From an uncultured Gammaproteobacteria bacterium (GTDB taxonomy: Bacteria > Pseudomonadota > Gammaproteobacteria > CAWCPV01), in contig CAWCPV010000006.1 in assembly GCA_963797555.1 (NCBI GenBank), forward strand, positions 64,001 to 128,000: 64,000 nucleotides of DNA. Direction: 5' to 3'. A program made the translations under genes and the position numbers. Positions 3,431-46,592 of this stretch are shown here, piece by piece. The notes beneath the pieces were generated by a model that ran no database searches, had not been told where the DNA came from, and worked only from the letters and a program-made list of their open reading frames with translations. Numbering within the stretch: position 1 is the first letter of the stretch; the number at the start of each line of letters is the position of its first letter.

Positions 3431-3973
3431 TCATTCCCCGCCAATGCCCTTCGGGAGGTCAACGGCGGATTCACCCCAGCTCTCGGGGTAGGTGCCGTCC
3501 GCGACGTAATGCCTGAAACTGGAATAGCGCCAATCGAGTGGGCGCTTGGCATAGCCGTGCTTTACCGGGTTGTAGTGGATATATTCGACATGCCGCCTGT
3601 AGTCTTCTTCATCGCGCAGCAGGTGTTCCCAATAGCGATGTTGCCAGATGGCCCGCTCGCCTTTTCGGCGCCTGGCGCTATTGGCGGGATTGTCTCGCAG
3701 GTGGGGATCGCAATGCTTGGTGAACCACGTCTTGACCAATCGCAGCCGGGTGGAGAAGTCTCGATCATGGTCGGGCAATGTCAGGATGCAATGCAGGTGG
3801 TCCGGAAGCACCACGGCCGCTGATAGGACGAACGGGTGCTGGTCCATCACGCCGCGGAACGCTTGCCGCAGGATGTCGATGGCGGCATCGGTCGCCAGGA
3901 TCGGCCGCCGGCTCTCGGTGACGAGAGTGAAGAAGTAGCTGCCACCAGGCACGTATGCACGGCGATATTGCAT
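3431..3973 (-). CDS. REP-associated tyrosine transposase (RAYT, HUH/Y1 family)
   Basis: YRRAYVPGGSYFFTLVT, HUH motif LPDHLH, WQHRYWEH, YIHYNPVKHG, WRYSSF; flanked by inverted REPs. Confidence 0.93.
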   Translation of the reverse strand: MQYRRAYVPGGSYFFTLVTESRRPILATDAAIDILRQAFRGVMDQHPFVLSAAVVLPDHLHCILTLPDHDRDFSTRLRLVKTWFTKHCDPHLRDNPANSARRRKGERAIWQHRYWEHLLRDEEDYRRHVEYIHYNPVKHGYAKRPLDWRYSSFRHYVADGTYPESWGESAVDLPKGIGGE

Positions 3974-8205: not shown

Positions 8206-8315
8206 CGCGAAAAGTCGGCACGGATATCACAGATGCCGACATTATGTGTTGACACGCCCGTTTGTCCGACGCATATTGCAGGCATGTCACAACAGCGTGC
8301 CGACAATTCGAGTCA
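8203..8315 (+). promoter_or_regulatory. Candidate internal sigma70 promoter and inverted-repeat operator of abiE
   Basis: TTGACA 8249-8254, 17 nt spacer, CATATT 8272-8277. Inverted boxes 8203-8222 and 8296-8315 (17/20 complementary) and a third TGCCGACA box at 8234. Confidence 0.5.
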
Positions 8316-8922
8316 ATCCCCCAAGTCTTCGGAGCCCGTCGACCTGCTTCGCAGCGCCGCTCTGGGTGCCTTCTTCCGTCCGAGCCAGATCCATGCGGCA
8401 GGACTATCGCGCGACCAGCTCCCGGCCCTCGTGCGATCGGGGAAGGTCGAACGAATCGGTCGCGGCCTCTACCGGCTCGCGGACGCCGAGCCGACCGAGA
8501 ACTACTCCCTGGCGATGGCGTGCGCGCGGGTGCCGAACAGCATCGTCTGCCTGCTCTCCGCCCTGCGCGTCCATGGCATCGGCACCCAGGCACCGGCCGA
8601 GGTCTGCCTCGCCATTCCGCACAAGGCGCGCATGCCGCGCCTCCCCGAACTCAAGCTGCGCGTCGTGCGCTTCAGCGGACCTGCTTGGACGTTCGGTGTA
8701 CAGACGACCGCGTTCGAGGGCGTGCCGGCACGGATCACCTCCCCCGCGCGGACCGTGGCGGACTGCTTCCGGTTCGAGCGCCTCGTGGGGCCCGAGGCTG
8801 CGATGGAAGCGCTGCAGGACGCCCTGCGACAGCGGAAGGTCACGATCCCCGAACTCTCGCGCGTGGCGGAGATCCTTCCGTCGCGCCGCCTCAGCGCCGC
8901 GCTGGACACGAGGTTGATATGA
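8284..8922 (+). CDS. abiEi: Type IV TA / abortive infection antitoxin AbiEi
   Basis: N-terminal wHTH (LVRSGKVERIGRGLYRL), IVCLLSALRVHGI, ITSPARTVADCFR; ATGA overlap with the next gene. Confidence 0.9.
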   Translation: MSQQRADNSSQSPKSSEPVDLLRSAALGAFFRPSQIHAAGLSRDQLPALVRSGKVERIGRGLYRLADAEPTENYSLAMACARVPNSIVCLLSALRVHGIGTQAPAEVCLAIPHKARMPRLPELKLRVVRFSGPAWTFGVQTTAFEGVPARITSPARTVADCFRFERLVGPEAAMEALQDALRQRKVTIPELSRVAEILPSRRLSAALDTRLI

Positions 8923-9854
8923 CTGCAGACGTGGCGGCGTCGGTCAGGGCCCGTCTCCTGAACCAGGCAAAGGCGAGCGGGGAGGAGTTCGAGCGAACCC
9001 TGGCGCGCTTCGCCGCCGAGCGGCTGCTCTTTCGCCTCGGTGAATCCGCGGCGCGAGACCGTTGCATCCTGAAAGGCGCCAGCCTCCTTGCGGTATGGCT
9101 TCCGGATCCTTACCGGGCAACCCGCGATGTGGACGTGCTGCTCTCGGGACAGGCGGACGACGCCGCGATCCGGTCGCTGGTGGCGGAGATCTGCGCGATG
9201 GCCTGTCCCGAAGACGCCCTCCGCTTCGACCTCTCCAAGCTGGTCGTCGAGACGATCCGGCCCGAGGACGAGTACTCGGGCAAGCGCGCCCGCTTCCGCG
9301 CGTTCCTCGGCAACGCGCGGATCGCCGTGCAGCTTGACCTTGGCGTTGGCGACGCGTTGACCGTACAGCCCGAAGAGATCGTCTACCCGACGATGCTCGA
9401 CACCCTGCCCCCGCCCCGGCTCCGCGCCTATCCGCGCGAGGCGTCCGTCGCCGAGAAGTTCGAAGCGATGGTGAAGCTCGACACGCGCAACAGCCGGATG
9501 AAGGACTTCCACGACATCTGGGCGCTTGTGGGCGCCTTCGAGTTCGATGGCCCGTCGCTCCAGAAAGCAATCGCGGCCTGCTTCGAGCGCCGGGGCACAC
9601 CGTGGACCGATGAACTCCCGCGCGTCCTGACCCCGGCGTTCTACCAGATGCCGGATATGGAGACGCGCTGGCGGAACTACCGCGCGGCGGGTGCCGTGCT
9701 CGCCCCGCTGCCGCCCCAGTTCGCGGTCATCGGAGAGCGCATCATCGAGTTCCTTGGCCCTGTCCGGAGCAGCATCGCCGCGGGAGAGGCGTTCGAGCGT
9801 GCCTGGGCGCCGGGAGGCCCTTGGATGTCTGCCGGACAAGAGAACACAGAATGA
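8919..9854 (+). CDS. abiEii: AbiEii/AbiGii nucleotidyltransferase toxin
   Basis: ASVRARLLN, ILKGASLL, RATRDVD, VAEKFEAMV, NSRMKDFHDIW motifs. Confidence 0.9.
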   Translation: MTADVAASVRARLLNQAKASGEEFERTLARFAAERLLFRLGESAARDRCILKGASLLAVWLPDPYRATRDVDVLLSGQADDAAIRSLVAEICAMACPEDALRFDLSKLVVETIRPEDEYSGKRARFRAFLGNARIAVQLDLGVGDALTVQPEEIVYPTMLDTLPPPRLRAYPREASVAEKFEAMVKLDTRNSRMKDFHDIWALVGAFEFDGPSLQKAIAACFERRGTPWTDELPRVLTPAFYQMPDMETRWRNYRAAGAVLAPLPPQFAVIGERIIEFLGPVRSSIAAGEAFERAWAPGGPWMSAGQENTE

Positions 9855-11719
9855 TCGGCGCCAGCTTCGACAGCACCAAGACCCCGCTTCACGACCTGCT
9901 CGCACGGGCCGACGGCGGCAAGCTCCAGCTTCCGGATTTTCAGCGCGGCTGGGTCTGGGACGACGACCGCATCCGGAGCCTCCTCGCCAGCGTGTCGGTC
10001 TCTTTCCCGATCGGTGCCGTGATGTTGCTCGAAACGGGCGGCGAGCACGTCCGCTTCAAGCCGCGGCCCCTCTCCGGAACGCACGAGCGGCTGCGCCAGA
10101 TCGCGCCCGAGACGTTGATCCTCGACGGCCAGCAGCGGCTGACATCGCTCTACCAGGCGCTGATGAGCGCGGTGGTGGTCGAGACCAAGGACGCCAAGGG
10201 CAAGCCGATCCGCCGCTGGTACTACATCGACATGAAGCAGGCCGTGACTAACGACGACGACCGCGAGGACGCGGTGCTGAGCGTCCCCGAGGACCGCCAG
10301 GTCAAGGCGTTCGGCGGCGAGATCGCTTTGGACGTGACGACACCCGAGCGGGAGTACGGAGCCGACCTCTTTCCCGTGAACCGGATTTTCCAGAGCGCGG
10401 AGTGGCGTCAGGCTTACAACAAGCACTGGAACTACGTACCCGAGAAGATCCAGCTCTACGACGAGTTCGAGCGCGAGGTCATCAAGCGGTTCGAGCAGTA
10501 TCAGGTGCCGGTGATCGAGCTGAAAAAGGAGACACCCAAGGAGGCCGTCTGCCTGGTCTTCGAGCGCGTGAACACGGGGGGCATGGCGCTCAACGTGTTC
10601 GAGCTGCTCACGGCCGCCTTTGCCGCGGACGATTTCCAGCTCCGCGATGACTGGAACGCCCGCGAGCAGCGCCTGAAGGGCCAGCACCCCGTGCTGCGCA
10701 ACCTCCAGAGCGACGACTTCCTCCAGGCCATCTCGCTCCTCGTGACGCAGAGGCGCCGCCACAACACGCTCGCGGCCGGCGTCGCCGTCGACAAGGCGCC
10801 CGGCATCAGTTGCAAGCGCAAGGACATCCTGAAGCTCGAGGTCGCCGACTGGCAGGCATGGGCCGAACGCGTCGAGGCCGGTTTCGTGCGCGCCGCGCGC
10901 TTTCTGTACGGGCAGAAGATATTCAAGGCGCGGGATCTGCCCTACCGCACCCAGCTCGTGCCGCTCGCCGCGATGTTTGTGAACCTCGGCCAGGACGGTG
11001 AGACCGAGGGTGCCCGCCAGCGGATCGCCCGATGGTACTGGTGTGGGGTTCTCGGCGAGCTTTACGGCGGCGCCATCGAGAGCCGCTTCGCGCGCGACCT
11101 GCCGGAGGTGGTCGCCCTGGTGCGCGGCGAGGGGAGCGAGCCGATCAGTATCCAGGAGTCGAGCTTCCAGGCCAACCGGCTGCTGACGCTGCGGACGCGC
11201 AACAGCTCGGCCTACAAGGGAGTCTACGCGCTCCTGATGCGCGACGGCGGGCGGGACTTCCGCACCGGCGAGCCGATCGAAGCCCAGACCTTCTTCGACG
11301 ACAAGGTCGACATCCACCACATCTTCCCCGAGAAGTGGTGCAAGGCGGCCGGCATCGAGCCCGGCACCTACAACAGCGTGATCAACAAGACGGCGCTCGC
11401 CGCCAAGACCAACCGCCAGATCGGCGGCCGCGCGCCGTCGAAGTACCTGCCTGCGATCGAGAAGGCCGCTGGTGTTGGTACCGAGCGTATGGACGAGATC
11501 CTGCGTTCGCATTGCATCGCACCGGGAGAACTGCGGGCCGACCGCTTCTGGGAGTTCTACGCTGCACGCGCCGAGGCGCTGCTCCAGCGCATCGAGGCCG
11601 CGACGGGCAAGACCATCACGCGCGAGCCGGAACTTTTCCGCGCCGGGGTCGTCGCCGAAGTCTACGACGAGGGGCCGGAGGAATGGGACGCCGAGGAGCC
11701 GATCGAGGAGGCGTCGTGA
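9851..11719 (+). CDS. DUF262 + HNH-like protein (GmrSD-type modification-dependent restriction family)
   Basis: DUF262 motifs LPDFQRGWVW, LDGQQRLT and FERVNTGG; C-terminal DIHHIFP...N...TN HNH-like motif. Confidence 0.85.
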   Translation: MIGASFDSTKTPLHDLLARADGGKLQLPDFQRGWVWDDDRIRSLLASVSVSFPIGAVMLLETGGEHVRFKPRPLSGTHERLRQIAPETLILDGQQRLTSLYQALMSAVVVETKDAKGKPIRRWYYIDMKQAVTNDDDREDAVLSVPEDRQVKAFGGEIALDVTTPEREYGADLFPVNRIFQSAEWRQAYNKHWNYVPEKIQLYDEFEREVIKRFEQYQVPVIELKKETPKEAVCLVFERVNTGGMALNVFELLTAAFAADDFQLRDDWNAREQRLKGQHPVLRNLQSDDFLQAISLLVTQRRRHNTLAAGVAVDKAPGISCKRKDILKLEVADWQAWAERVEAGFVRAARFLYGQKIFKARDLPYRTQLVPLAAMFVNLGQDGETEGARQRIARWYWCGVLGELYGGAIESRFARDLPEVVALVRGEGSEPISIQESSFQANRLLTLRTRNSSAYKGVYALLMRDGGRDFRTGEPIEAQTFFDDKVDIHHIFPEKWCKAAGIEPGTYNSVINKTALAAKTNRQIGGRAPSKYLPAIEKAAGVGTERMDEILRSHCIAPGELRADRFWEFYAARAEALLQRIEAATGKTITREPELFRAGVVAEVYDEGPEEWDAEEPIEEAS

Positions 11720-13074
11720 GGGCGGCGAAGAACACCGAGCGTGCGGCGCGGCCAGAGCGTTTCAGGTCCTATCCGGGCTACAAGGACTCGGGGGTCGAGT
11801 GGTTGGGGGAGATTCCCGCGCACTGGGAGGTCGCGCCCGTCTATGCGCGGTACCAGATAGCACTTGGAAAGATGCTCGATGCCAAGCGGGTGACCGGCGA
11901 GTCTTCCGGGCGATACTTGCGCAATATCGATGTCCAATGGGACGCGGTGAACACAGAAGGGCTGCCGGAGATGGACTTCGCCCCGGGGGAGCGCGACCGG
12001 TACCTGATTCGCCCGGGCGACCTGCTCGTTTGCGAGGGTGGCGAGGTCGGTAGAACCGCAATCTGGGGTGGGCAAATCGAGGAGTGCTTTTACCAGAAGG
12101 CGATCCACCGGGTAAGACCGCATTCGGACAAAGAGGCGCCGCGCTTTTTCTACTACCTTATGTACACTCTGGCAAAGCGTGGTGTATTCGTCGCGGGCGG
12201 GAACCCGAACACGATCGATCACCTCACCGCCGTGCAACTGAGGCATTACCGCCTTCCGTTCGCCCCGACTCAAGAACAACGTGCCATCGCCGCCTTCCTC
12301 GACCGGGAGACGGCGAGGATCGATGCGCTGGTGGCGAAGAAGGAGCGGCTGATCGAGCTGCTCCAGGAGAAACGCACCGCCCTCATCACCCGCACCGTCA
12401 CCAAGGGCCTCGACCCGAACGTCCCCATGAAGGACTCCGGCGTCGAGTGGCTGGGGGAAATTCCGGCGCATTGGGAGGTCAGGAAGACGACCTGGATATT
12501 CACGATTGGGAGTGGAACGACGCCCCGGTCTGAGGATCCCGCTTACTACGGTGGTGAGACGCCTTGGATCACCACATCTGAGCTTCGCGAGTCGGAAGTG
12601 GTCGCAACAGAGAAGAACGTCACTGGGGACGCGGTTAGAGACCACCCGAGCCTGAAGGTTCATCCCAAGGGGAGTGTCGCAGTGGCGATGTACGGTGCGA
12701 CGATTGGGCGTCTCGGAATCCTGGGCGTTCCCGCGACAGTTAATCAGGCTTGCTGTGTCTTTAGCAGGCCCAGGGGTATCGAGACGTGGTACTGGTTCTA
12801 TTGGCTGCAGATGCGGCGGCCGTATCTAATCTCGCTTGGCTACGGCGGCGGTCAACCGAACCTCAGCCAGGATCTCTTGAGATCGCTCCGCGTCCCGACG
12901 CCGCCCCTTCTCGAGCAGCGCGCCATCATTTCCTTTCTCGATCTGGAGGCGGCGCGGATTGACGCCCTCATTGCCAAGGTCCGCGAAGCCATCGAGCGGC
13001 TCAAGGAACTGCGTACCGCCCTCATCTCCGCCGCGGTGACAGGCAAGATCGACGTGCGGAAGGAGGTCGCATGA
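11716..13074 (+). CDS. hsdS: Type I restriction-modification specificity subunit S
   Basis: Duplicated conserved block KDSGVEWLGEIPAHWEV, two TRDs, EQRAI..FLD.E.ARIDAL helices, ALISAAVTGKIDVR terminus; GTGA overlap at the start. Confidence 0.95.
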   Translation: MRAAKNTERAARPERFRSYPGYKDSGVEWLGEIPAHWEVAPVYARYQIALGKMLDAKRVTGESSGRYLRNIDVQWDAVNTEGLPEMDFAPGERDRYLIRPGDLLVCEGGEVGRTAIWGGQIEECFYQKAIHRVRPHSDKEAPRFFYYLMYTLAKRGVFVAGGNPNTIDHLTAVQLRHYRLPFAPTQEQRAIAAFLDRETARIDALVAKKERLIELLQEKRTALITRTVTKGLDPNVPMKDSGVEWLGEIPAHWEVRKTTWIFTIGSGTTPRSEDPAYYGGETPWITTSELRESEVVATEKNVTGDAVRDHPSLKVHPKGSVAVAMYGATIGRLGILGVPATVNQACCVFSRPRGIETWYWFYWLQMRRPYLISLGYGGGQPNLSQDLLRSLRVPTPPLLEQRAIISFLDLEAARIDALIAKVREAIERLKELRTALISAAVTGKIDVRKEVA

Positions 13075-13429
13075 CTCGAATTGCCGTCAAACGGAAATTG
13101 GTGCACCAGGCACGCCAGAGGGTTGGCCGGAGCTTTGAGGCCCTTACACGGAAGTTGCCGAGGCTTCAGTGCGGCGCGAGCGTGCCCTGCTTGGAGCCGT
13201 CAGTCGACTGACGCTCTGCAGACGGTCCTCACCGGCAGTCCGCGGGGCCGTTGTCTTCACCGAAGCCCGCTGACGCAAATAGCTCGGCGGCTTGTTTTCG
13301 GAGGCGCTAACATCCTCGCAGCCAGCGAAGGTGGTTGTCTCCGGCTGGGGTTGTTGGTTAGACTTCACCATTGAAGTCTTAATAGCACTGCGGCTTATTC
13401 AGAGTTTCTGAACAGCGGGGCCTAGCGTC

Positions 13430-14593
13430 GTGCAGCGCGGGGAAACCGGTCGCTACGAGGTCACCAGCGTTGGGGGCGAGCAGGTCCGCGCCTTCGTGCC
13501 GGCCCCGCTGCCGCCAGCCCCGCCGCTCGTCTTGGACGGTCCACTCCAGCAGACGCTCGAATCCGCTGTGCTTGCGGTCGGGCGGCTCGACGGCGTCTCG
13601 ACCCTGCTGCCCGACAAGGCGCTCTTTCTCTATGCCTATGTGCGTAAGGAGGCGGTGCTCTCTTCCCAGATCGAAGGGACGCAGTCGTCGCTCTCGGACC
13701 TACTGCTCTTCGAGCTAGACGAGGCGCCGGGCGTTCCTCTCGATGACGTCGTCGAAGTCTCGAACTACGTCGCGGCCCTGGAGCACGGGCTGGCACGCCT
13801 GCGGGAGGGCTTTCCGCTCTCCAATCGACTCGTCCGCGAGATCCACGGCGTGCTGTTCTCGCGCGGGCGCGGCAGCGCCAAAAATCCCGGTGAGTTCCGC
13901 CGCTCGCAGAACTGGATCGGCGGCAGCCGGCCCGGCAATGCCGCCTTCGTGCCTCCGCCCCACACCGTCGTGCCCGACTGCATGGCGGCGCTCGAGCGTT
14001 TTCTTCACGCCGAGGGCGACGGCCTGCCCGTTCTGGTGCGCGCCGCAGTGGCGCACGTCCAGTTCGAGACGATCCACCCCTTCCTCGACGGCAACGGGCG
14101 TGTTGGACGTCTGCTCATCACCTTCCTGCTCTGCGATGCCGGCCTGCTGCGGGAGCCGCTTCTGTACCTGAGCCTCTATCTGAAGCAGAACCGGACGGCA
14201 TACTACGACCTGCTCGACCGAGTGCGGCGCACCGGTGACTGGGAGACCTGGCTTGCATTCTTCCTGGAGGGGGTAAGGCAGACGGCTGAAGGCGCGGTCT
14301 CGACCGCGCAGCGGTTGGCCGAAACGTTCACGGCCGATCGGGCGAAGATAGAACCGGCCGGCCGCCGGGCCGGCTCGGCGCTACGTGTGCACGAGGCGCT
14401 GAAGAGGCGGCCGATCCTCTCCATGCCCGAGGTCTGCCGAAGCACGGGGCTGTCCTTTCCGGCCGCCTCGTCGGCGATGGACCTGCTCGCAGAGTTCGGA
14501 ACGGTGCGGGAGCTGACCGGGAAACGTCGGAACAGGCTCTTCGTGTACGAACGGTACCTCGCCATCCTCAACGAGGGCACAGAGGCGCCATGA
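13430..14593 (+). CDS. Fic-family protein with C-terminal HTH
   Basis: Canonical Fic motif HPFLDGNGRVGR; EAVLSSQIEGT inhibitory-helix motif. Confidence 0.92.
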   Translation: MQRGETGRYEVTSVGGEQVRAFVPAPLPPAPPLVLDGPLQQTLESAVLAVGRLDGVSTLLPDKALFLYAYVRKEAVLSSQIEGTQSSLSDLLLFELDEAPGVPLDDVVEVSNYVAALEHGLARLREGFPLSNRLVREIHGVLFSRGRGSAKNPGEFRRSQNWIGGSRPGNAAFVPPPHTVVPDCMAALERFLHAEGDGLPVLVRAAVAHVQFETIHPFLDGNGRVGRLLITFLLCDAGLLREPLLYLSLYLKQNRTAYYDLLDRVRRTGDWETWLAFFLEGVRQTAEGAVSTAQRLAETFTADRAKIEPAGRRAGSALRVHEALKRRPILSMPEVCRSTGLSFPAASSAMDLLAEFGTVRELTGKRRNRLFVYERYLAILNEGTEAP

Positions 14594-17500
14594 GTCCCGA
14601 GATCTCCGAGCGCTCCTTCGAGCAGGCCATCGAGTGCGGGCTGCTCCGGTATGGCCCGGACGCCCGCGCCGGGGACTCGACCGCCGTCCGGGAGACGCCC
14701 CCGCCCTACGGCGAAGCCGTACCGGGCGACTACCGGAAGCGCTCGCCGGAGGACTACGACCGCGCGCTGTGCCTGCTGCCGCGCGACGTCGCGGACTTCG
14801 TCCTCGCCACGCAGCCGAAGGAATGGGAGAAGCTCAAGCAGCACCACGGCGCCGAAACCAAGGAGCGGTTCTTGAAGCGCCTCGCCTCGGAGATCGAACG
14901 GCGCGGCGCGCTCGACGTGCTGCGGAACGGCATCAAGGACTCGGGCTGCAAGTTCCGGCTCGCCTACTTCCGCCCCGCCAGCGGGCTCAACGAGGAGACC
15001 CGGCGCCTGCACGCGGCGAACCTGTTCGCGGTGGTGCGCCAGCTCCGTTACAGCGGGAAAAACGAGAAGAGCCTCGACCTGGCACTGTTCCTGAACGGGT
15101 TGCCGGTCTTCACTGCCGAGCTGAAGAACCCCCTCACCGGCCAGGATGTCGAGGACGCCATCCGACAGTACAAGAGCGACCGCGACCCGCGCGAGCCGCT
15201 CCTCGCCCACGGCCGCTGCCTCGCGCACTTCGCGGTGGATCCGGACCTGGTCTACGTGACCACCCAGCTCGCCGGGCCGAAGACGCGTTTCCTCCCCTTC
15301 AACCAGGGCAAGTTCGGCGGCGCCGGCAACCCGCCCGTGCCGCCCACCCGGGGGGGCTACGCGACCGCGTACCTCTGGGTGGAGACCTGGGCGCGCGACA
15401 GTGTGCTCGACCTCGTGCGCCAGTTCATCCATGAGGTCGAGGAGGAGGACGAGAAGGGGCGCAAGACCGGCAAACGCTTCCTGATCTTTCCGCGCTACCA
15501 GCAGCTCGACGCCGTCCGCCGGCTGGTGGCCCACGCCCGCCAGTACGGGGCGGGGCAGCGCTATCTCATCCAGCACTCGGCTGGCAGCGGCAAGAGCTTC
15601 ACCATCGCCTGGCTGGCCCACCAGCTCTCGACGCTCCACGACGCGGCCGACCGGCGGGTCTTCGACTCCATCGTGGTCGTCACCGACCGGCGCGTCCTCG
15701 ACCGGCAGCTCCAGACCACCATGCGCCAGTTCGAGCAAACCCTCGGCGTGGTGGAGAACATCGACACCACCTCGCGCCAGCTCAAGCAGGCTCTGGAGTC
15801 GGGGAAGACCATCATCGTGACGACGCTCCAAAAGTTCCCGGTGATCGCGCGGGAGATAGGCGAGCTTCCGGGGAGCCGCTTCGCCGTTATCGTGGACGAG
15901 GCGCACTCGTCGCAGTCGGGAGAGAGCACCAAGAGCCTCAAGTCGGTGCTGGCCTCCGCGAGCCTGGAGGAGGCGGAACGGGAGGAGGCCGCAGCAGAGA
16001 CTCCCGAGGAGGAGCTGGAGAACACGGTCCTCGCCGAGATGGAGAAGCGGGGCCGGCTCCCCAACCTCTCCCTGTTCGCCTTCACGGCGACCCCCAAGCC
16101 CAAGACCCTCGAGCTCTTCGGCACGAAGCGCCCCGACGGCAGGTTCGCGCCCTTCCACCTGTACAGCATGCGCCAGGCCATCGAGGAGGGATTCATCCTC
16201 GATGTCCTGGAGACCTACACCACCTACAAGGCATACTGGCGGCTCCTCAAGAAGATCGAGGACGACCCCCGTTACGACAAGAACAAGGCGCAGCACCTGC
16301 TGAAGTCGTTCGTGGAGCTGCACCCGCACGCCATCAACGAGAAGGTGCGGATCATGGTCGAGCACTTCGCCGCCCAAGCGCAGAACGAGATCGGCGGGAA
16401 GGCCAAGGCCATGATCGTGACGCGGTCGCGGCTGCACGCGGTGCGCTACCGGCTGGCGCTGGACCGTTATGTGAAGGAGAAGGGGTATCCGTTCAGGGCG
16501 CTGGCCGCCTTCTCGGGCGCCGTGCAGGACGGCGGACTGGGCTACACCGAGGCGGAGATGAACGGCTTGTCCGAGAGGCAGACCGCCAAGACCTTCGAAC
16601 GCCCCGAGTACCGTTTCCTCATCGTGGCCAACAAGTTCCAGACCGGCTTCGACCAGCCGCTGCTGCACACCCTGTACGTGGACAAGAAGCTCGGCGGGGT
16701 GAACGCCGTGCAGACCCTGTCACGGCTGAACCGCATCCACCCCGGGAAGCGCGGGACGATGGTGCTGGACTTCGCCAACGAGGCCGACGCCATTCAGGCG
16801 GCGTTCGAGCCATACTACGAGACCACGCTGCTCTCGGAGGCGACGGACCCCAACCTCCTCTACGAGACGCAGAGCCGGCTCCTCGCCTTCGGGGTCTATA
16901 CCGAGGCGGACGTGGACCGCTTCGCGAAGGTCTATTTCGACCGCAAGGCCACGCAGGACCAGCTCTATGCGGCCCTGGCCCCGGTGACGGCGCGCTTCTT
17001 CGGGGAGCTGTCCGAAGAGGAGCGGCACGACGTCCGCGGCCAGCTCACCGACTACGTGCGGCTCTACGCCTTCCTGGCCCAAGTGCTGACCTTCGCCGAC
17101 ACGGACCTCGAGAAGCTCTACGTGTTCGCGCGCCACCTGCGGCGGCTCCTGCCCTCCGATCAGGTCGAGCTTCCCCGGCGAGGTGCAGCAGAACATCGAC
17201 ATGGAGTCCTACCGCATCCAGCAGACGGGGAGCGGGAAGATCGCGCTGGAGCGCAAGACCGGCCTGCTCGACCCGATGGGGACGAAAGACCATCCCGGGC
17301 CGGGACCGGAGCAGATCGAGCCACTATCCCGGATCATCGCCGAGCTGAACGAGCGCTTCGGGCTGAATCTCGGCCCCGAGCACCGAGTCACGCTCGGCCA
17401 GATGATCGAGAAGCTGGACGACGACCCGGCCCTCGACGCCAGCGCCCGGGCCAACACGCGCGAGAACGTGAGGCTCACCTTCGACCAGAAGGTGGAGGAC

Positions 17501-18133
17501 GTGATCCAGGAAATCGTCGACTCGAACTTCGATCTGTACAAACGCATCACCGACGACCGGGCGTTCGGCCAAGCGGTCAAGAACTTCCTTTTCGATCAGT
17601 ATCTGCGGACCCACCGGCAGGCGGAGGAGCTGATCAAACGAGGCGAGTCCCGGACCCTCGAGTTCAAGTCCACGCTGCGCTGGAGCCTCCGCGAAAACCG
17701 GATGGACGACAAGGCCGTCACCCATGCCGTCCTCAAGACCATCGCGGCGTTCCTGAACACCGAGGGCGGCGACCTCCTCATCGGTGTCGCGGACGACGGA
17801 TCGGTGGTCGGCATCGAGGTCGACCGGCTCGACAGCGACGACAAGTTCATGCGCCACCTGGCGCAGGCCGTCCGCAACGGCCTGGGCGACCGTGCCAGCA
17901 CCTGCATCGACCCGAGGACCCAGGTCGTCCGGGGAAAGACCGTGTGCCTGGTCACCTGCCAGCGCAGCCCGGAGCCCGTGTTCCTCAAATGGAAGGGAAC
18001 CGAGGAGGGCCCCGGCGGAGATTTCTACGTGCGGAGCGGGCCGGGAAGCGTGAGACTCCGCCCCGAAAGCGCTGCGGAATACATCCGGACGCGGTTTCCG
18101 GAGGCGCCGAAGCGTGGTGAAGATTCGCCGTAG
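14590..18133 (+). CDS. hsdR: Type I restriction subunit R with C-terminal Schlafen/AlbA_2 domain; 1-nt frameshift at ~17175
   Basis: Nuclease motif DLALFLNGLPVFTAELKN, Walker A HSAGSGKS, DEAH, FTATP, QTLSRLNR. HsdR tail continues in the 17183..18133 frame (ELP-EVQQNIDMESYR), then GESRTLEFKS...IAAFLNTEGGDLLIGVADDG. Confidence 0.92.
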
Positions 18134-23229: not shown

Positions 23230-25098
23230 CAGAACTCCTGACATGCGCTACCTAACCGATTGAGAAGGCGCTATAATCGATGCGGGTATCGAAATATAAA
23301 TACGAGACCAGAGGAATGCTATGCCAGGCACCATTGAGCTTCCCTTGCTGCCCGAACAGGCTGTGACATTGGGTCCGCGGTTGACGGTCATCGAAACGCC
23401 CAAGGAACTCGTGTTCATGAATGCCTCCGGTCCGTTGATGAGCTGCGCGCGCACGGATACGACGGCTAAGTGTTACCTCGGGGCGGTGTTCATGACGCAG
23501 GGTTTAGCGAAGGGTGAGGACTTGGCGGCGGTGTTGGGTGTTCACCGCTCGACGGTATTTCGCAACCAGAAGCTGTATCGCGAAGGGGGTCTTGATGCCA
23601 TACGCGATGGCCGAGGCCATGGTGCGCCGCGTCGTGGGCATAAGCTCACCGATGAGGTTTTGCCGATCGCTCAGGCGTGCTTGGACCAAGGGTGCTCGCA
23701 GTCGCAGGCCGCGCGTGCGCTCGGTGTGAGTGAGACGGCGGTGCGCCATGCGATCAAGACCGGACGGCTGCGCCGCTCGCCAACAGGCGGCGCAACTAGC
23801 CGCGGCGTTGACCGCCCAGTGGGCGCAGGGGGAGCCCGATGAGCTGGGCATACTGTACGTCGACGGTCACGTCCATGCCTACACGGGGCGCAAGCATCCG
23901 CTGCCTAAGACGTTGGTGCAGAAACGCCGCCAGTGTCTGCCCGCCTCGACGGATGTTTGGGTGCATAACGGAGCGGCCGAGCCGGTGTTCTTCGTCACCA
24001 GCCCCCTCAATGGACACCTCTTGGCGCTGATCGAGCAGGAGGTCATTCCCCAGGCGCGCCAGCAGATCGGCCCCGACCGGACGCTGACCTTGGTGTTTGA
24101 CCGTGAGGCTTGGAGCCCCCAGTCCTTCCAGCAGTGGCACAGCCAAGGGGCCGAAGTCATCACGTATCGCAAGGGTAAACAAACGCCCTGGGACCCGGAG
24201 GACTTCCGCCCCTTAAGCGTCGAGCACCACGGTAAGTCTGTGACCTATAGTCTGGCCGAGTGCAGCGTGCAGGTCATCGCTGCCAATCGCAAGCAACCCG
24301 CCTTGTGGATGCGCGAGATCCGCCGCTTATGCAAAAACGGACATCAGAGCGCGATCCTGACGACCCGGCAGGACTTACCTGCCGCAGAGATCGCCCATCG
24401 CATGTTCGGCCGTTGGCGCCAAGAGAACTTCTTCAAATACCTGCAGGACGAATTCAACATCGACCACTTGAGCACCTATGCCACCGAACCAGCCGATCCT
24501 GAGCGGATGGTTCCCAATCCTGAGCGCCGAGCGCTGATAAAATCGCTCCAGGCAACCAAGGCGCAGCTCGGCAGAGCCTACGCCCAGCGTGGCAAGCACC
24601 AACGTAACAGGGCATCGACGGCGAAGCAAGAGAAGGCGACAGAGGCCATCGAACGATTGGAAAGGCAATGCGAGCAACTCAGCGAACGCATCAACGCGAT
24701 GGAAAAGCGCGTGCCATTGAAGAGCATTTATGAGGCGGACAAGATCGTACATCACGAACGCGAACGAAAAACCATTACCCGGCTCATCAAGGTCGTCGCT
24801 TATCGCAGTGAGAGTTGTCTCGCGAGCATTGTCGAACCCTTTTTCGTGCGCCACGACGACGAAGTTCGCGCCTTCCTCAAAGCCGTGTTCTGCTTACCCG
24901 GCGAGATTATCCCGGATTACCAGCGCCATGAATTGCGGGTGCGTCTCTACGGCTTGGCCAATAATCGATCTCAACAAGCTCTCATCGCTCTTTGCGAATA
25001 TCTGAATACCCAGCAGATGAAATACCCTGGCACCCACCTGCCCCTGGTCTACGACACCGCCCAGTCGCATTGAATTTAGCGCCAAGTCAGGAGTTCTG
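23230..25098 (+). mobile_element. IS element with DDE transposase (family uncertain, IS4-superfamily-like), split into ORFs 23321..23842 and 23730..25073
   Basis: Terminal inverted repeats CAGAACTCCTGACATGCGCTA and TAGCGCCAAGTCAGGAGTTCTG; HTH N-terminus, YVDGH, VFDRE, RWRQENFFK. Confidence 0.8.
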
Positions 25099-25209: not shown

Positions 25210-25560
25210 GTGCGGCGTGCAGATTTGGGAGTGAGATGGGGACAAAACAGGCCGGTCGGTACAGGTACACAGCTTGGCCGGGCGCCGCTGGGAGGCAGCG
25301 TCTGAGCAATTAGGGGTTGTAAGTTTCCCCAGGGTGAAGTTGCAGGCCGTAGCGCGAGCGAACCTACGAGTAGCCTCGTTACGATGAGCTGGAGATGCCG
25401 ACCCTGTGGTCAGAAGGGGAAGGCCGCTGTCGGTGGAATGGGAAAACGGAAGCGTTCCATCGGATCTCCCGGGGTAGCAGGGGCGGCATGCAGCGGAAGA
25501 GAAGCAGAGCAGGGCGGGAGACCCGCGGCGGTGGGGCACAGGGCCGCCAACCGCTAGAAA
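25210..25560 (+). ncRNA. 5' fragment of a group II intron (domain I region), no RT ORF
   Basis: Starts with GTGCG; purine-rich structured segment with GAAGGC and GGGAGACC motifs typical of bacterial group II intron 5' regions; cut off by IS1380 sequence. Right boundary approximate. Confidence 0.55.
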
Positions 25561-26711
25561 GGTGCACGGACAACTCCTTTCGCGGGACTTCAACCCGCCA
25601 GAGAAACAGACGGTTACGGCATACGGCCAGAGAGAACGATTTCTTCCGCCAGGCGCTGGGTATCGAGCGGGTGCCTTCGGCGGAAAAGCTGAGGCAGCGC
25701 CTCGAACGAGCACGCAGCGGCGATGCGGGGGTATCGACGAGGCCAATATTGAGTTCATGGTCAACGCCAAGGTGCCGGTGAGCCCCCTGAAGACCGCCCA
25801 TGCGCCCGTGGACATCGATGTCTTTCCCATGGACAACTCCGGGACCCAGAAAGAAGGGGGCTCGCGCACCTACCCCGGCTATGACGGTTATGCGCCGATC
25901 GCGGCCTATGTGGGAGCCGAAGGCTGGAGCCTCGCCTGTGAGCTGCGCGAAGGCAAGCAGCACAGCCAGAAGGAATTCAGCTACGTCTGGGAGCGCATCC
26001 TGCCGCGCGCCAGGCGCCTGACGGCCCTGCCTTTGCTGGTACGCCAGGACAGCGCCCACGACGCACTGGAGAATCGGCTGAGGTCTGTGCAAGAGGAGGT
26101 GGACTTCATTATCCAGTGGAACCCCGAGGCGAGGACCCTGCGCAGTGGCTTGAGCGCGCCGAGCACCAAGGGGTGTGGGAGACACCCCGACCCGGCAAGC
26201 GGATAGCGCTGTTCAGCGTCATCGAGGAGCACCCCCATCCAGGCCATACCTACTACGTTCGCCGGGTCATGCGGGTGACCGAGCGCACCATCGACAAATA
26301 GGGCCAAATGCTGCTGGTGCCGGAGCTTGAGCTCGAGGGCTGGTGGACCTCCCTGGCCTACTCTGACCATGCGATCCTCGCCCTGTACCAGGACCACGGC
26401 ACCTCCGAGCAGTTTCACGAGACGAGTTCAAGACCGATCTCGACATCGAGCGGCTGCCCTCCGGGAACTTTGACACCAATGACCTACTGCTGGGCTTTGC
26501 CGTATTCGCCTACAACATCCTGCGCTTCATCGGTCTCATCGGGCTGACCGGCGAGGTCGCCCCCCTGCGCCACCCAGCCAAGCGCAGGCGGCTCCGGACC
26601 GTCATCCAGGAGCTGATGTATCTCGCCGCCCGGTTGGTCGCCACCGCCCGGAGGCTCTGTCCCGGCTTCCGCGCCTTCGAGCAAGTGTATTGCCAACTCG
26701 CCTTCGGGTAG

Positions 26712-27797
26712 CTAGTGTAGTGCTTCATTCTGTTTAGAACTTAAACGTGCGTTGGCGCGGATGACCTTCTGCAGGATGTCCTTAGCCTTGGCGGTCCAGA
26801 TGAAGGGTTTGGGATTGGCGTTGTGGGCATCGACATAGCGGTTGATGGCATGGATCAACTCGGGGACGCTTCGAAACACGCCACGGCGCAACCGATCCAC
26901 AGTCAGGTCGCGGAAGAATCGCTCGACCATGTTCAACCAGGATGCTGAGGTGGGCGTGAAATGGATGTGGAAACGCGGGTGTTTTCCCAGCCATTTCTGA
27001 ACGTTGGGATGTTTGTGGGTGGCGTAGTTGTCGCAGACCAAGTGCAGTTCCTTGTCCTTGGGCGTCTCGCGGTCGATTTGGCGCAGGAAGGTGAGCCACT
27101 CCGTGTGGCGATGGTGCGGCTCGCAGCGGGCAATCACGGAACCCTCCAAGGTGTTCAGGGCAGCAAACAGTGTCGTGGTGCCATGGCGCTTGTAGTCATG
27201 GGTCATGGTCGCAGCCCGCCCCTTCTTCAGCGGCAGGCCAGGTTGGGTACGATCCAGCGCCTGAACCTGACTCTTCTCGTCGCAGCACAACACCAAAGCA
27301 TGCTCCGGGGGGGACAGATACAGCCCGACGATGTCCTCCAACTTCTCGGTGAATTTCGGGTCGCGCGATACCTTGAAGGATTCGACACGATGCGGCTTCA
27401 GCCCATGGGCATGCCACACGCGCAGCACCGTGGTGTCGCTCACTCCCATTTCCTTAGCCAGGGTCCGCGTACTCCACTGTGTCGCTGCTAAGGGCTGGGT
27501 CTGAGTCGTGCGTCGCACGATCTCGGCGGCATCCACCTTGGGCTGACGACCTCCGCGCGGCAGGTCACACTCGATGGCCGCCAGCCCGCCTTGCGCATAG
27601 CGCTCCCGCCAACGCCCAACCTGCACACGCCCAATCTTGAGTTCCGCCGCGATGGCCTTGTTCTCCATGCCCACCGCCGCCAACAGCACAATGCGCGCTC
27701 GGCGGGCCAGCCTCACACTCGTGGTGTTCGAACGCGACACACGCCTCAGGCTCCGCTGTTCTTCCGCGCTCAGTCGGACCATCGGGGCTACTCGCAT
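26712..27797 (-). CDS. IS630-family transposase
   Basis: HTH N-terminus, CCDEKSQVQAL, THDYKRHGT, CDNYATHK, SWLNMVERFF. Confidence 0.95.
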   Translation of the reverse strand: MRVAPMVRLSAEEQRSLRRVSRSNTTSVRLARRARIVLLAAVGMENKAIAAELKIGRVQVGRWRERYAQGGLAAIECDLPRGGRQPKVDAAEIVRRTTQTQPLAATQWSTRTLAKEMGVSDTTVLRVWHAHGLKPHRVESFKVSRDPKFTEKLEDIVGLYLSPPEHALVLCCDEKSQVQALDRTQPGLPLKKGRAATMTHDYKRHGTTTLFAALNTLEGSVIARCEPHHRHTEWLTFLRQIDRETPKDKELHLVCDNYATHKHPNVQKWLGKHPRFHIHFTPTSASWLNMVERFFRDLTVDRLRRGVFRSVPELIHAINRYVDAHNANPKPFIWTAKAKDILQKVIRANARLSSKQNEALH

Positions 27798-41962: not shown

Positions 41963-42038
<76 letters not shown>

Positions 42039-42078
42039 TCCACGCGGGGCCGGGCAATGCCCGGCCCGCTTGTGCCCC

Positions 42079-42155
42079 GCCCCGGTAGCTCAGCAGGATA
42101 GAGCGTCCCCCTCCTAAGGGGAAGGTCAGCCGTTCGAGTCGGCTCCGGGGCGCCA
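42079..42155 (+). tRNA. tRNA-Arg(CCT)
   Basis: GCCCCGG/CCGGGGC acceptor, anticodon arm TCCCC-CT-CCT-AA-GGGGA, TTCGA, CCA end. Confidence 0.96.
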
Positions 42156-44283: not shown

Positions 44284-44546
44284 TGCAACCCCTGCGCCGC
44301 AGGGCACAGCGTCGATCCAGCGGGTATCTCGGTCACGTCCAACGGCTGCGTAAAAAGCAGCCCGTCGCCGGTAATCATCGCAAAAACTCCAGCCGACTCC
44401 TCGGTGCAAACCGCGACGGCAGGAATCCCGGGCACAGAATCACGAAGTTTGGCCGCAACCGCAGTGGCGCATTTACGGCAAATTCCGGCATGGCGCTGGA
44501 ACGAACGCGATGCAGCTCGGACTTGGGTACGGGTCAGGGTGCTCAT
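44280..44546 (-). CDS. Small hypothetical protein downstream of capsid gene
   Basis: TAATG overlap with the capsid stop; CxxC motif. Confidence 0.5.
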   Translation of the reverse strand: MSTLTRTQVRAASRSFQRHAGICRKCATAVAAKLRDSVPGIPAVAVCTEESAGVFAMITGDGLLFTQPLDVTEIPAGSTLCPAAQGLQ

Positions 44547-45595
44547 TATGCGGTTGCCTTCACAATACCGTTCCGGCCAATTGCCTGAATCCCGGTAATG
44601 AACTCGAATCGAAACGCTTGACCGTCATACGTTAGTGGCGTGCGGACTCGGGAAACACTCGGAGTATTCGGGAAGTTCAGCGCCATCCTGGCGATGACGG
44701 GTGCAATCGCCGGGTCACCCATTAGATAGGATGCCCCGCTCGGCAACCATGGGTTGCAGATAACTTGAATACCAGGAACGCCAGCATACAAACTCGCCAC
44801 GGTGGCCGCCGCTGCGATCTCCGAATCGCCAGGGACCACCCAAAACGCAGGCTTGATATTGCCGACGTTGCCGACTCCCGTGGTGTTCGTCCGCAACTTC
44901 GCGGCCGCATTACCCAAACCCGTTATCGTGGCGACTCCACCCGAGACCGAATTGCCGGCGCCGATCAACGGTGCGCCGTCGCCCAAATTGCCGTTTGCCT
45001 GAATGACAGCGGCAATCTGCGCCGCTTCTATTCTCGCCGCATGTCCCGACAATTGCTCGGTCGCCGAAATAATAATGTCCGCGTCACCATTGATCAACAT
45101 TTGGCGAGAGACGAGAAAACGCGCACCAAAAACAGAAGGCTCCCCGGTGACTCCGGCACTGGCGAGAATCGGAGCGAATTGAATCGGTCCTCCGCTCTTC
45201 GGAATAAACGAAAGCTCGCCCAGATCCAGCTCGGGAAACGAAATCGGCCTAAGATCGCGAGCTACGATGTCCCGACAAATAGAGCCATGCTCCGCAGATT
45301 GTTTATCGTAGCTGATGGCGGGAACTCGCGACAACGCGACGGCGAGAGCCTCCCCAAAATCCGACGTGGTTAGCTGTCTCGTCGCTTCGGAGCCGGTGCG
45401 CCCGCTGCCATGGCCGCTCAAATGCGCTGCGATGTCAAGCAACGAAACTCGCTCGTCCGGGCCGTTGAGCAGCTCCGCGACCGGGTGCGCGTCGGGCACG
45501 CGCTGCCCAGCTCGGAGGAGGAGAAAATCAGGCAGAGCTTCGAGAATGTCTTGCCTGGCGAACGGAATCGGTCGGGTCAATCGTGGCTCTGGCAT
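44546..45595 (-). CDS. Phage major-capsid-like protein (probable HK97 fold)
   Basis: TTSDFG..L, FGARFLVSRQMLINGD, GNLGDG.PL....N, IKPAFWVVP, and a C-terminal RFE....AIGRNGIVK resemble lambdoid/Mu-gpT-like capsids; AAGGAGG RBS. Confidence 0.72.
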   Translation of the reverse strand: MPEPRLTRPIPFARQDILEALPDFLLLRAGQRVPDAHPVAELLNGPDERVSLLDIAAHLSGHGSGRTGSEATRQLTTSDFGEALAVALSRVPAISYDKQSAEHGSICRDIVARDLRPISFPELDLGELSFIPKSGGPIQFAPILASAGVTGEPSVFGARFLVSRQMLINGDADIIISATEQLSGHAARIEAAQIAAVIQANGNLGDGAPLIGAGNSVSGGVATITGLGNAAAKLRTNTTGVGNVGNIKPAFWVVPGDSEIAAAATVASLYAGVPGIQVICNPWLPSGASYLMGDPAIAPVIARMALNFPNTPSVSRVRTPLTYDGQAFRFEFITGIQAIGRNGIVKATA

Positions 45596-45719
45596 GGTCA
45601 CCTCCTTGATCATGGCGTTATACACATCTCCCCGTAGCTAGGGCTGCTGCCCCTCTGGACACAGCCCCCGGAAGCTGATTCAATGCCCCCATCGTTCACC
45701 AGGTGACGAGGGGGAGCAG

Positions 45720-46592
45720 ATGGAGAAGGGGTTGCCGAGGTGGTTGGGTGGGCGCGTGCTGAGCGCGGGGGAGCTTGAGAGCATACGGCGGGAGGCTCGG
45801 CTGGCGGAGCCCCGAGTGCGAGCCGAGGTGGCGCGGCGGGTGTGTCGGGTGCTGGGGTGGACCGATGCAGCCGGTAGGCCCAAGCTGATGAGCTGTCGAG
45901 TCGGGCTGCTGCGGCTGCATCGGGCAGGCTGGATCGAGCTGCCGGCGCCGCGCAACGGTAACGGCAATGGGAAGGGGCTGTCGCGCGAGCCGCAAGATTG
46001 GCCCGCTGAGGTACCGGTGGTGGGCGCAGTGCGGGATTTGCAGGGTCTGCACTTGGCGCCGGTTGCTGACCCGGCGGACTCGGCGCTGTGGAATGGGCTC
46101 ATCGACCGGTACCATTATTTGGGCTACCGGCCGCTGCCCGGTGCCCAGCTGCGCTATCTGATTCGCTGGGACGCGGGTGTGGTGGGGGCCATGGGCTTCG
46201 GGGCCGCGGCCTGGAAGGTGGGCGTGCGCGACCGCTGGATTGGCTGGGATGCGCCAAGCCGTGCGCAGCACCTGGGGCAGGTGCTGAACCATGCGCGGTT
46301 TCTCATTCTGCCGTGGGTGCGGGTGGCGAACCTGGCCTCCAAGGTCCTCGGGCGGGCCGCGCGGCAGGTGCCGGGCGAGTTCGAAGAGCGCTACGGGGTA
46401 CGCCCGGTGCTGCTGGAGACCTTTGTCGAGGCCGGCCGGTTCGCGGGCACCTGCTACCGGGCGGCCAACTGGCATCATCTGGGGCAGACCACCGGGCGGG
46501 GCAAGCTCGACCGTGAGGCGCTGCCCATCAAGGATGTCTATGTGTATCCGCTCGATGGCCGCTTTCGCCGGGCGCTCGGGGGAGCCGCATGA
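45720..46592 (+). CDS. DUF4338 (DruA-like) domain protein
   Basis: WNGLIDRYHYLGY..LPGAQLRYL, RDRWIGW, RFLILPWVRVANLASKVL, LLETFV, GTCYRAANW..LGQTTGRG. Confidence 0.88.
   Translation: MEKGLPRWLGGRVLSAGELESIRREARLAEPRVRAEVARRVCRVLGWTDAAGRPKLMSCRVGLLRLHRAGWIELPAPRNGNGNGKGLSREPQDWPAEVPVVGAVRDLQGLHLAPVADPADSALWNGLIDRYHYLGYRPLPGAQLRYLIRWDAGVVGAMGFGAAAWKVGVRDRWIGWDAPSRAQHLGQVLNHARFLILPWVRVANLASKVLGRAARQVPGEFEERYGVRPVLLETFVEAGRFAGTCYRAANWHHLGQTTGRGKLDREALPIKDVYVYPLDGRFRRALGGAA

Follow-up and report, generated by a model that had tools for sequence, protein, structure and literature searches.

Can the motor subunit of a type I restriction enzyme carry its own RNA-cutting effector? The question is raised by hsdR, the last gene of a type I restriction operon in a 64,000-nucleotide stretch of DNA from an uncultured Gammaproteobacteria bacterium (assembly GCA_963797555.1, contig CAWCPV010000006.1, positions 64,001 to 128,000 of the forward strand). 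This whole stretch is termed the window. A first-pass annotation, made from the sequence alone, had described a Schlafen/AlbA_2 domain at the C-terminal end of HsdR and had proposed a tRNA-cleaving enzyme tethered to a restriction motor. The fusion is real, widespread and strongly conserved; the hsdR of the window is itself interrupted by one extra base, and the RNase activity of the domain and its substrate are predicted from sequence comparisons.

An HsdR subunit that ends in a Schlafen domain

The open reading frame at 17183-18133 (plus strand, 316 amino acids, stop codon at 18131-18133) begins with the HsdR tail and continues, with no stop in between, into ...LIKRGESRTLEFKS...KTIAAFLNTEGGDLLIGVADDG...FYVRSG, just as the first-pass annotation had read it. 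Over residues 1-153 this piece shares 79-83% identity with the tails of uninterrupted homologues. Residues 155-292 (17645-18058) match the Pfam family PF04326, SLFN_AlbA_2, over model positions 1-117 of 118, with an E-value of 4.7e-19 and a score of 69.5 bits against a cut-off of 25.3 bits; the match scores 71.5 bits in the genome search. The E-x4-E-x-K nuclease motif reported earlier is indeed intact (Table 1). The 30 Atlas clusters nearest to the domain of a homologue (P0055) all carry PF04326 (30/30).

The domain also displays the Schlafen box and the glycine/hydrophobic core that follows it. The window sequence, AAFLNTEGGDLLIGV, has the box A-A-F-L-N instead of S-A-F-A-N and aligns with SAFANT..GG..IGV of SLFN5, 11, 12, 13 and 14. 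A profile built from the domain only (A3) matches the N-terminal domain of SLFN11 (7fex) with an E-value of 1.8e-7 and SLFN13 (5yd0) with 1.5e-6; matches to SLFN5, 12 and 14 range from 5e-6 to 3e-4. In the SLFN11 alignment, SAFANT.EGG..FIGVDD is paired with AAFLNTEGG..LIGVADD of the window. The domain is Schlafen-type as placed by these sequence profiles.

The domain is found on an otherwise complete enzyme. The D..ExK and QxxxY motifs of the HsdR nuclease do not vary among the sequences compared (52/52); of the motor motifs, GSGKS is found at residue 332 and DEAH at residue 436. As the canonical nuclease and motor motifs are intact, the Schlafen domain represents an addition and not a replacement. 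The enzyme belongs to a divergent HsdR lineage: an intact homologue of 1,178 amino acids (P0002) reaches 210 bits with TIGR00348, under the NCBIfam HsdR cut-off of 284.55, the best PADLOC REase_I model gives just 121-124 bits, and the nearest solved structure is EcoR124I, over the motor only.

A search with the 316-amino-acid piece among longer proteins gave 2,230 matches at E ≤ 1e-3, with 7,993 candidates scored. The best 120 of the 2,230 relatives are 79-85% identical and carry PF04326 without exception (120/120). Ninety-five of these 120 are uninterrupted, with 1,032-1,203 amino acids and with HSDR_N and motor domains, and 25 are shorter pieces. With the motor part as the query, PF04326 is found in 116 of the 120 best relatives. 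When each species is represented by one genome, a relative is encoded at 111 loci. Full-length fusions do occur elsewhere, a point on which the first-pass proposal depended. The 80 loci that were kept, 70-85% identical, come from Acidobacteriota, Gemmatimonadota, Nitrospirota, Cyanobacteria, Planctomycetota, Chloroflexota, Myxococcota, several classes of Pseudomonadota, and others. A second scan with a Schlafen-box pattern found at least 560 relatives, and the HsdR tail stands directly before the domain in 60 of the 75 new loci kept. The orthologue of Acanthopleuribacter pedis (P0176) is just 49% identical; it has the domain in the same place with the motif kept, which points to a fusion that is old within this HsdR lineage. 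In their source records, proteins of the family are named 'type I restriction enzyme R subunit', 'RNA-binding domain-containing protein' or 'putative DNA binding domain-containing protein'.

A variant with an additional domain is found in Acanthopleuribacter pedis KCTC 12899 (L167:10001-13990) and in the proteins P0176, P0131 and P0167. Here a Peptidase_S24 domain (LexA/UmuD-like) stands behind the Schlafen domain, with an Ala-Gly site (AAAG), the GRSMEP serine and a lysine, and the compact hsdM-hsdS-hsdR operon adjoins trpBA. S24 tails are also found on Schlafen-less HsdR families with DUF3387 (P0344, P0345, P0355, P0357, P0359, P0363 and P0367), and they terminate some methylases and DEAD/DUF1998 helicases. 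Such a tail could be a built-in device for DNA-damage-triggered release or for restriction alleviation.

Searched alone against 1.84 billion representatives, the domain has 6,433 matches at E ≤ 1e-3 and 201 at E ≤ 1e-30. The nearest after HsdR fragments are proteins of about 390-450 amino acids with an unannotated N-terminal part and a C-terminal Schlafen domain; the N-terminal part of these ∼430-amino-acid proteins gives just a weak ATP12-like lead. One of them (L089:8001-9305) is flanked by a DUF499-DUF3780-DUF1156 set and a PLD-SNF2 helicase, in an island of a BREX-related type. At the end of an SNF2 helicase and of a TPR protein there are related domains as well, and others are present in Eco57I-type restriction-methylases (∼1,350-1,425 amino acids) and in DUF262/GmrSD-type proteins (∼750 amino acids). 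In a tree from a quick search, with SH-aLRT support only, 25 HsdR-borne domains form one clade (SH-aLRT 99) amid the ∼430-amino-acid family, and the DUF262-borne domains lie across a 99-supported branch from them.

Conservation was assessed in 80 HsdR-borne domains, that of the window and those of 79 loci. The motif residues E15, E20 and K22 are kept in 78, 79 and 79 of the 80, respectively, and D64 in all 80. N52, G55, G56, D74, D80 and R144 are likewise conserved in 80 of 80. Alignments A1 and A3 show no variation at N52, G55, G56, L58 and G61; D64 is invariant in A3 and present in at least 90% of the A1 rows. In relatives of just 41-52% identity all these residues are likewise unchanged or almost so. 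Median dN/dS (Nei-Gojobori; 698 pairs, 39 loci) is lowest in the Schlafen part (0.108), followed by the helical tail (0.147) and the motor (0.169). The Schlafen part is thus under purifying selection and is at least as constrained as the rest of the enzyme. Chance is far from explaining the domain match, the full-length relatives at 80% identity and the conserved operon, each of which is highly significant.

One locus departs from this pattern. In a Nitrospiraceae genome (L041, 10448-10508) the motif reads A-x4-A-x-T, with E->A, E->A and K->T replacements that arose by four separate point changes. It is the only locus in which all three motif residues are replaced; the remaining domain is conserved and the HsdR frame is open. 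Loss of exactly these three residues is as expected if they form one active site that is sometimes costly, and as a single lineage the case proves nothing alone.

The operon and the extra base in hsdR

The window operon has the order hsdM-abiEi-abiEii-GmrSD-hsdS-SoFic-hsdR (Table 1). When the window is compared with homologous loci, nucleotide similarity begins at the first bases of hsdM and stops at the hsdR stop codon. The cassette from hsdM to hsdR is therefore the unit of similarity, and the operon moves as one. Synonymous divergence across phyla goes down to 0.2-0.4, and is 0.22 between the motors of a Polyangiaceae and an Acidobacteriota locus; divergence this low between phyla indicates that the cassette was recently transferred. 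Coverage of 80% or more of the C-terminal piece is reached by 0 of 72,556 plasmid records and 0 of 50,697 phage records; no mobile vehicle for the cassette was identified in these plasmid and phage record searches.

Table 1. Positions of the operon genes, the parts of hsdR and other elements in the window
Feature	Position	Strand	Evidence or remarks
hsdM, type I methyltransferase, 705 aa	6088..8205	+	Pfam HsdM_N and N6_Mtase; PADLOC MTase_I PDLC03029, 898.7 bits, profile positions 5-660/661
abiEi, antitoxin/regulator of the AbiE pair inside the hsd operon	8233..8922	+	Pfam AbiEi_4, AbiEi_3_N, AbiEi_1; PADLOC AbiEi, 192 bits
abiEii, nucleotidyltransferase toxin of the AbiE pair	8901..9854 (start approximate)	+	Pfam AbiEii, E 9.5e-40; PADLOC AbiEii, 311.5 bits, positions 6-298/299
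GmrSD/DUF262-like gene, local cargo between abiEii and hsdS	9821..11719	+	Pfam GmrSD_N, E 2e-29; PADLOC PDC-M55C / HEC-05
hsdS, specificity subunit	11716..13074	+	Pfam Methylase_S, two stretches; PADLOC Specificity_I, ∼377 bits, full length
SoFic-type Fic gene between hsdS and hsdR	13430..14593	+	Pfam Fic_N and Fic; PADLOC SoFic, 391.3 bits, positions 5-359/361
hsdR (two reading frames)	14590-18133	+	last gene of the operon
hsdR first frame: PD-(D/E)xK nuclease, SF2 motor, domain 3, start of helical tail	14590..17175	+	Pfam HSDR_N, SWI2_SNF2, ResIII, T1R_D3-like
One-base insertion breaking hsdR	17173..17179	+	window CCCCGGC; 75 homologous loci in frame with one base fewer
hsdR second frame: C-terminal helical region	17183..17602	+	83% identical to P0002 from residue 862; 66-90% identical in loci
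Short linker, Schlafen/AlbA_2 domain (last ∼165 residues), variable tail, stop	17603..18133	+	PF04326
E-x4-E-x-K motif, ESRTLEFK (E15, E20, K22 of the domain piece)	17645..17668	+	aligned with ES..IEFK of SLFN11
Asp D64 of GVADDG, candidate third metal ligand	17792..17794	+	80/80 conserved
IS elements (IS200-like, Transposase_29, DDE_3 twice, Tn5-like, DDE fragments)	3431-3973, 23730-25073, 25562-26206, 26712-27797, 46589-47923, 52640-53593, 56904-58325		
tRNA-Ala and tRNA-Arg genes, then phage capsid-like gene and DUF3987 gene	41963-42155; 44546-45625; 49821-51563		

Gene content was counted in the 43 loci that have at least 6 kb upstream of hsdR. HsdS is encoded in 39 of these, HsdM in 36, AbiEi in 32, AbiEii in 31, Fic in 20 and GmrSD in 2. 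The commonest orders are hsdM-abiEi-abiEii-hsdS-Fic-hsdR (n = 15) and the Fic-less version of it (n = 12). In some loci (L059:5839-7487, L017, L013 and L008) Fic is missing and its position is filled by two genes, one for an HTH-Peptidase_M78 (ImmA/IrrE-like) protein and one for a DUF4411 protein. Cargo is thus accommodated at two places in the operon: AbiE, accompanied or not by GmrSD, between hsdM and hsdS, and SoFic or the M78 and DUF4411 pair between hsdS and hsdR. The GmrSD-like protein of the window is 83% identical to that of L041, the Nitrospiraceae locus described above, which is the only full locus to share this insertion. A literature search on AbiE embedded in type I operons yielded nothing useful. 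Between hsdS and the Fic gene there is also an open reading frame of 97 amino acids (13081-13374, plus strand), possibly no gene; it has no Pfam, PADLOC or NCBIfam match and no relative in the 80 loci.

The hsdR gene of the window is split between two frames. The first piece is 86% identical to residues 2-860 of P0002 and ends ...DQVELP; homology to P0002 then resumes in the next frame from EVQQNID. Where the window has CCCCGGCGAG, homologues have nine bases, e.g. CCCCGCGAG, and P0002 reads without interruption across the junction (...AELPREVQQNIDMESY). The junction is in frame in all 75 homologous loci in which it was readable (75/75). The first-pass annotation had noted that a one-nucleotide correction near 17175 is required to connect this frame with the HsdR motor. 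The shift is there, as a single extra base, and the same base is present in public short-read unitigs. Logan contigs of four public runs were placed on 16600-17800. One unitig of 209 bases (X4 record 15) covers 17071-17279 with no gap and one mismatch, another of 151 bases (X1 record 2) covers 17039-17189 with zero differences, and no insertions or deletions relative to the window are listed in the run contigs. The runs with unitigs belong to one study, possibly the source of the assembly, and so show the base in reads and not its sharing by other populations.

With the extra base also in the unitigs, hsdR in this genome is taken as a true pseudogene, and we hold this with good though not complete confidence. 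The frameshift would then leave the motor part followed by ∼314 wrong residues. As the shift precedes the C-terminal helical region, and as hsdM and hsdS, like the AbiE genes and SoFic, match their profiles over the whole length, the genome probably keeps modification and has lost both restriction and the Schlafen function. Both operons with the GmrSD insertion, that of the window and that of L041, have an impaired Schlafen function (n = 2).

It is rather unlikely that the frameshift is non-biological, that is, a sequencing or assembly error, or that the full-length fusion is still made by +1 ribosomal slippage on CCC-C. The assembly, with a completeness of 84.6% and 20 contigs, contains further HsdR paralogues that look broken, a pattern that indel errors could cause, and slippage on CCCC would restore ...ELPGEVQQ.... 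Against this, the two unitigs, from two public runs of the one study, are gapless across the site, which makes the base independent of the assembler even if they may derive from the source sample. Programmed +1 frameshifting was set aside, as the shift is present in 0 of 75 homologues and there is hence no conserved recoding site; an upstream stimulator sequence was not seen either, by eye only. The surroundings, full of IS elements and gene remnants, also speak for a real lesion.

This is an IS-rich, decaying and variable region, consistent with a broken hsdR (Table 1). The tRNA genes followed by capsid-like and DUF3987 genes suggest an integrated element. A group II intron D1-D4 match of Rfam (25247-25484, plus strand, 72.9 bits, full model) adjoins transposase fragments. 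In the same genome there are two further HsdR paralogue remnants, at G000:C7:3507-5205 and G000:C4:844634-846178; one spans three frames without a motor part and the other is interrupted by a TGA in frame. The genome also has a second AlbA_2 gene, at C4:646295-646681. Among genomes of the same class, 5 of 41 were matched (this genome, G000, included), and two of them, one being G039, hold a 45-46% identical HsdR that ends before the Schlafen part; no claim is built on them. None of the public sequencing runs contains half of the sampled words, and no habitat is inferred; parts of 16600-17800 that the run contigs leave uncovered are given no meaning.

What the Schlafen domain may do

HsdR-Schlafen may be a type I R subunit with a built-in RNase effector, encoded in a horizontally mobile operon, and the effector would be switched when the enzyme engages unmodified DNA. 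This is the reading that is favoured, tentatively and with slightly less than even confidence. In intact members, the methyltransferase core would read the methylation state, and unmodified DNA would be pulled by HsdR and cut by the PD-(D/E)xK nuclease at its N-terminus. The Schlafen lobe at the C-terminus would be a second, metal-dependent effector that most likely cleaves tRNA, or else other RNA, and so halts translation. As a lone lobe it may be inactive.

The proposed switch starts from what surrounds the domain. No conserved open reading frame is found 3′ of hsdR in 75 loci, where the largest cluster of downstream frames has 3 of 75 members, all cyanobacterial; a Schlafen domain that is dangerous must then be controlled within the enzyme itself. 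Known Schlafens need dimers or oligomers: RorSlfn5 is a hexamer that senses the T5 tail-assembly chaperone (PMC13056530), CbCash is active only in filaments (PMC13462974), and RzAgo, a SLFN-pAgo protein, needs Schlafen dimers that mimic SLFN11 to cut tRNA (preprint 10.64898/2026.05.29.728809). A type I complex contains two HsdR (PMC2602864). Since no inhibitor gene travels along, and in view of the need for dimers or oligomers, we infer that the HsdR C-termini would be brought together or released on foreign unmodified DNA, by translocation, stalling or collision. In human SLFN11, binding of single-stranded DNA by the helicase part is described as activating tRNA cleavage (PMC13056530).

Several observations weigh against this reading. 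The window copy is broken, and no single uninterrupted hsdR frame is present. Nor is such damage unusual in the family, with a shortened frame in about 9-10 of 55 loci. The open codons before the Schlafen domain number at least 950 in 43 of the 55 loci in which the upstream stop was located and fewer in 12; two of the 12 short ones (921 and 927) may be whole, and some shortened copies are from long-read assemblies, whose frames may reflect assembly errors. Two relatives with a motor 84-87% identical (P0384 and P0448, 1,016 amino acids) end at the Schlafen boundary, ...EERIER, so that HsdR can exist without the domain; the remaining two motor relatives without PF04326 are truncated near residue 902. 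The matches to solved Schlafens are weak (E-values of 1.8e-7 to 5e-3) and lie mainly in the motif and the SAFAN-GG-IGVDD core. D64 is paired with the second Asp of GVDD in SLFN11, one position after the first, and it is the first that we take to be the catalytic residue. Some mammalian Schlafens are without nuclease activity (PMC13462974). The trigger, finally, is purely inferred.

The main alternative is a guard of the PrrC type, in which the working complex silences the Schlafen domain and an anti-restriction protein (Ocr, ArdA or Stp) triggers abortive infection. There is precedent in PrrC, which guards ecoprrI against Stp, and in PARIS, which also guards restriction (PMC12707154). The operon already contains AbiE and SoFic as further abortive modules. 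In EcoR124I the helical C-terminal region of HsdR joins the methyltransferase core, the site at which DNA mimics bind, and in the fusion a short linker ties the domain to this tail. Guarding is nevertheless considered improbable here: there is no homology to PrrC or RloC, and related Schlafens are found on DUF262 and Eco57I-type single chains that have no separate methyltransferase core, for which the sensing of foreign DNA is simpler. It is because related domains sit on such single-chain restriction enzymes that a trigger by engaged DNA is tentatively preferred to a guard. The parallel to PrrC drawn in the first-pass annotation accordingly survives as an analogy of logic and not as a relationship of descent, with no PrrC match in the operon.

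Two further possibilities concern the activity itself. The AlbA_2 domain might be non-catalytic and just bind DNA, RNA or hybrids, tuning HsdR loading, translocation or regulation. Its source names point to RNA or DNA binding, catalytic residues are missing in some mammalian Schlafens, and purifying selection by itself is no proof of catalysis. Yet the motif is kept in 78-80 of 80 domains and also in relatives of 41-52% identity, and the only lineage without it lost all three residues together, which is hard to square with a solely structural role of these residues; a purely binding module is doubtful. That the domain is a second DNase, cutting for example single strands or nicks exposed by translocation and so aiding restriction, would suit its tether to a DNA motor and the occurrence of relatives on DNA-restriction enzymes. 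It is highly improbable, since the characterised Schlafen nucleases described in the sources cut RNA, mostly tRNA, and since HsdR already has an intact and invariant PD-(D/E)xK DNase.

Returning to the favoured reading of an effector switched by engaged DNA, a wider picture can be drawn, and it is more speculative. HsdR-Schlafen would be one polypeptide that joins restriction to abortive infection, with the DNA motor licensing a tRNase by pairing or freeing the Schlafen lobes, so that a cell facing DNA that is not destroyed fast enough halts translation. The hsdM-abiE-hsdS-SoFic-hsdR-Slfn cassette would be a four-layer unit recently moved across phyla, to which the S24 variant would add a release on DNA damage, by the RecA filament.

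Type I restriction and abortive-infection RNases are usually seen as separate layers of immunity, with PrrC and other special cases as the only links between them. A widespread Schlafen nuclease borne on the motor would make the link between restriction and RNase covalent. The size and strong conservation of the family, and its occurrence in a few cultured bacteria, make the idea directly testable. Cultured carriers are Pelomicrobium sp. G1 (L008), Cyanobium sp. Morenito 9A2 (L017), Microcystis elabens FACHB-917 (L059) and, for the S24 variant, Acanthopleuribacter pedis KCTC 12899 (L167). For the annotation of the present genome, hsdR should be described as a pseudogene of an HsdR-Schlafen fusion.

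Relation to known systems

Bacterial Schlafens with an E-x4-(D/E)-x-K motif have been described since 2025-2026 as tRNA-cutting defence effectors, and 55 fusion architectures have been catalogued (Nat Microbiol 2026, PMC13056530; preprint 10.1101/2025.07.24.666596). More than half of the defence-linked Schlafens adjoin restriction systems or other nucleases, direct Schlafen fusions with restriction methyltransferases are reported, and it is speculated that restriction-linked Schlafens sense products or structures of DNA cleavage (PMC13462974). A Schlatpase (Schlafen-ATPase) module is fused to HsdS in Poribacteria (preprint 10.64898/2026.05.29.728809), and a comparative study of BREX names Schlafen RNases as backup effectors (PMC12839542). 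A literature search for Schlafen/AlbA_2 with HsdR or type I restriction found no naming of an HsdR fusion, supplementary architecture tables being outside its reach. HsdR is absent from the main text of PMC13056530 and its preprint, a statement that does not cover Supplementary Table 2 with the 55 architectures, and has 0 occurrences in the text of PMC13462974, Supplementary Data 3 aside. The first-pass impression of a system not yet characterised holds to the extent that no HsdR fusion is named in the literature searched, and has to be qualified in that Schlafen tRNase effectors and their links to restriction, as methyltransferase, HsdS and DUF262 fusions, are already in print. HsdR-Schlafen extends this published principle of Schlafen effectors fused to sensors and linked to restriction.

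The closest likeness is to the pSlfn proteins RorSlfn5 (an Ig-like sensor and Slfn) and EcoSlfn7 (DUF262 and Slfn). These share the Pfam domain and the motif, are one-chain fusions with a presumed sensor, and are found among defence genes. In EcoSlfn7 the Schlafen domain is joined to a restriction-type (GmrSD-like) domain, and a DUF262-Slfn fusion is reported to cut T7 plating ∼540-fold (PMC13056530). In the present family, by contrast, the Schlafen domain is C-terminal and joined to a complete type I HsdR motor-nuclease of an R2M2S1 complex, and the HsdR-borne domains form their own clade.

Cash, a Csx15-Schlafen fusion that cleaves tRNA when cA4 drives filament formation (Nat Commun 2026, PMC13462974), likewise has a Schlafen tRNase as the effector of nucleic-acid-sensing immunity. 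It differs in its activation, by cA4 and filaments, and no HsdR fusion is given in the text of its paper. SLFN-pAgo and Schlatpase share with HsdR-Schlafen a domain that resembles the Schlafen C-lobe; the bacterial domain is described as the equal of only the C-lobe of the two-lobed mammalian Schlafen (preprint 10.64898/2026.05.29.728809). Schlatpase is in addition attached to a type I subunit. Both, however, have a GHKL ATPase, whereas the HsdR fusion has none and is on R and not on S.

With PrrC/EcoprrI and RloC the likeness is one of logic, a tRNA-cutting suicide enzyme that is coupled physically and genetically to type I restriction. PrrC and RloC consist of an ABC-type ATPase plus an anticodon-nuclease domain, and no such Pfam or PADLOC match is present in the operon. 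They are unrelated proteins encoded by a separate gene, and activation by Stp is a property of PrrC, a tRNA-Lys anticodon nuclease in the type IC locus ecoprrI that fires when T4 Stp inhibits the enzyme (PMC12707154); this is analogy and not membership.

Human SLFN11 offers the broader comparison, as it too has a Schlafen tRNase on one chain with a nucleic-acid motor. In SLFN11 the domain order is reversed, the helicase is of another superfamily (SF1) and the Schlafen part has two lobes, and the similarity is limited to the core motifs. The HsdR-Schlafen family would nevertheless offer a defined system in which to learn how a DNA-sensing machine turns on an RNA-cutting effector, the same question that is open for human SLFN11.

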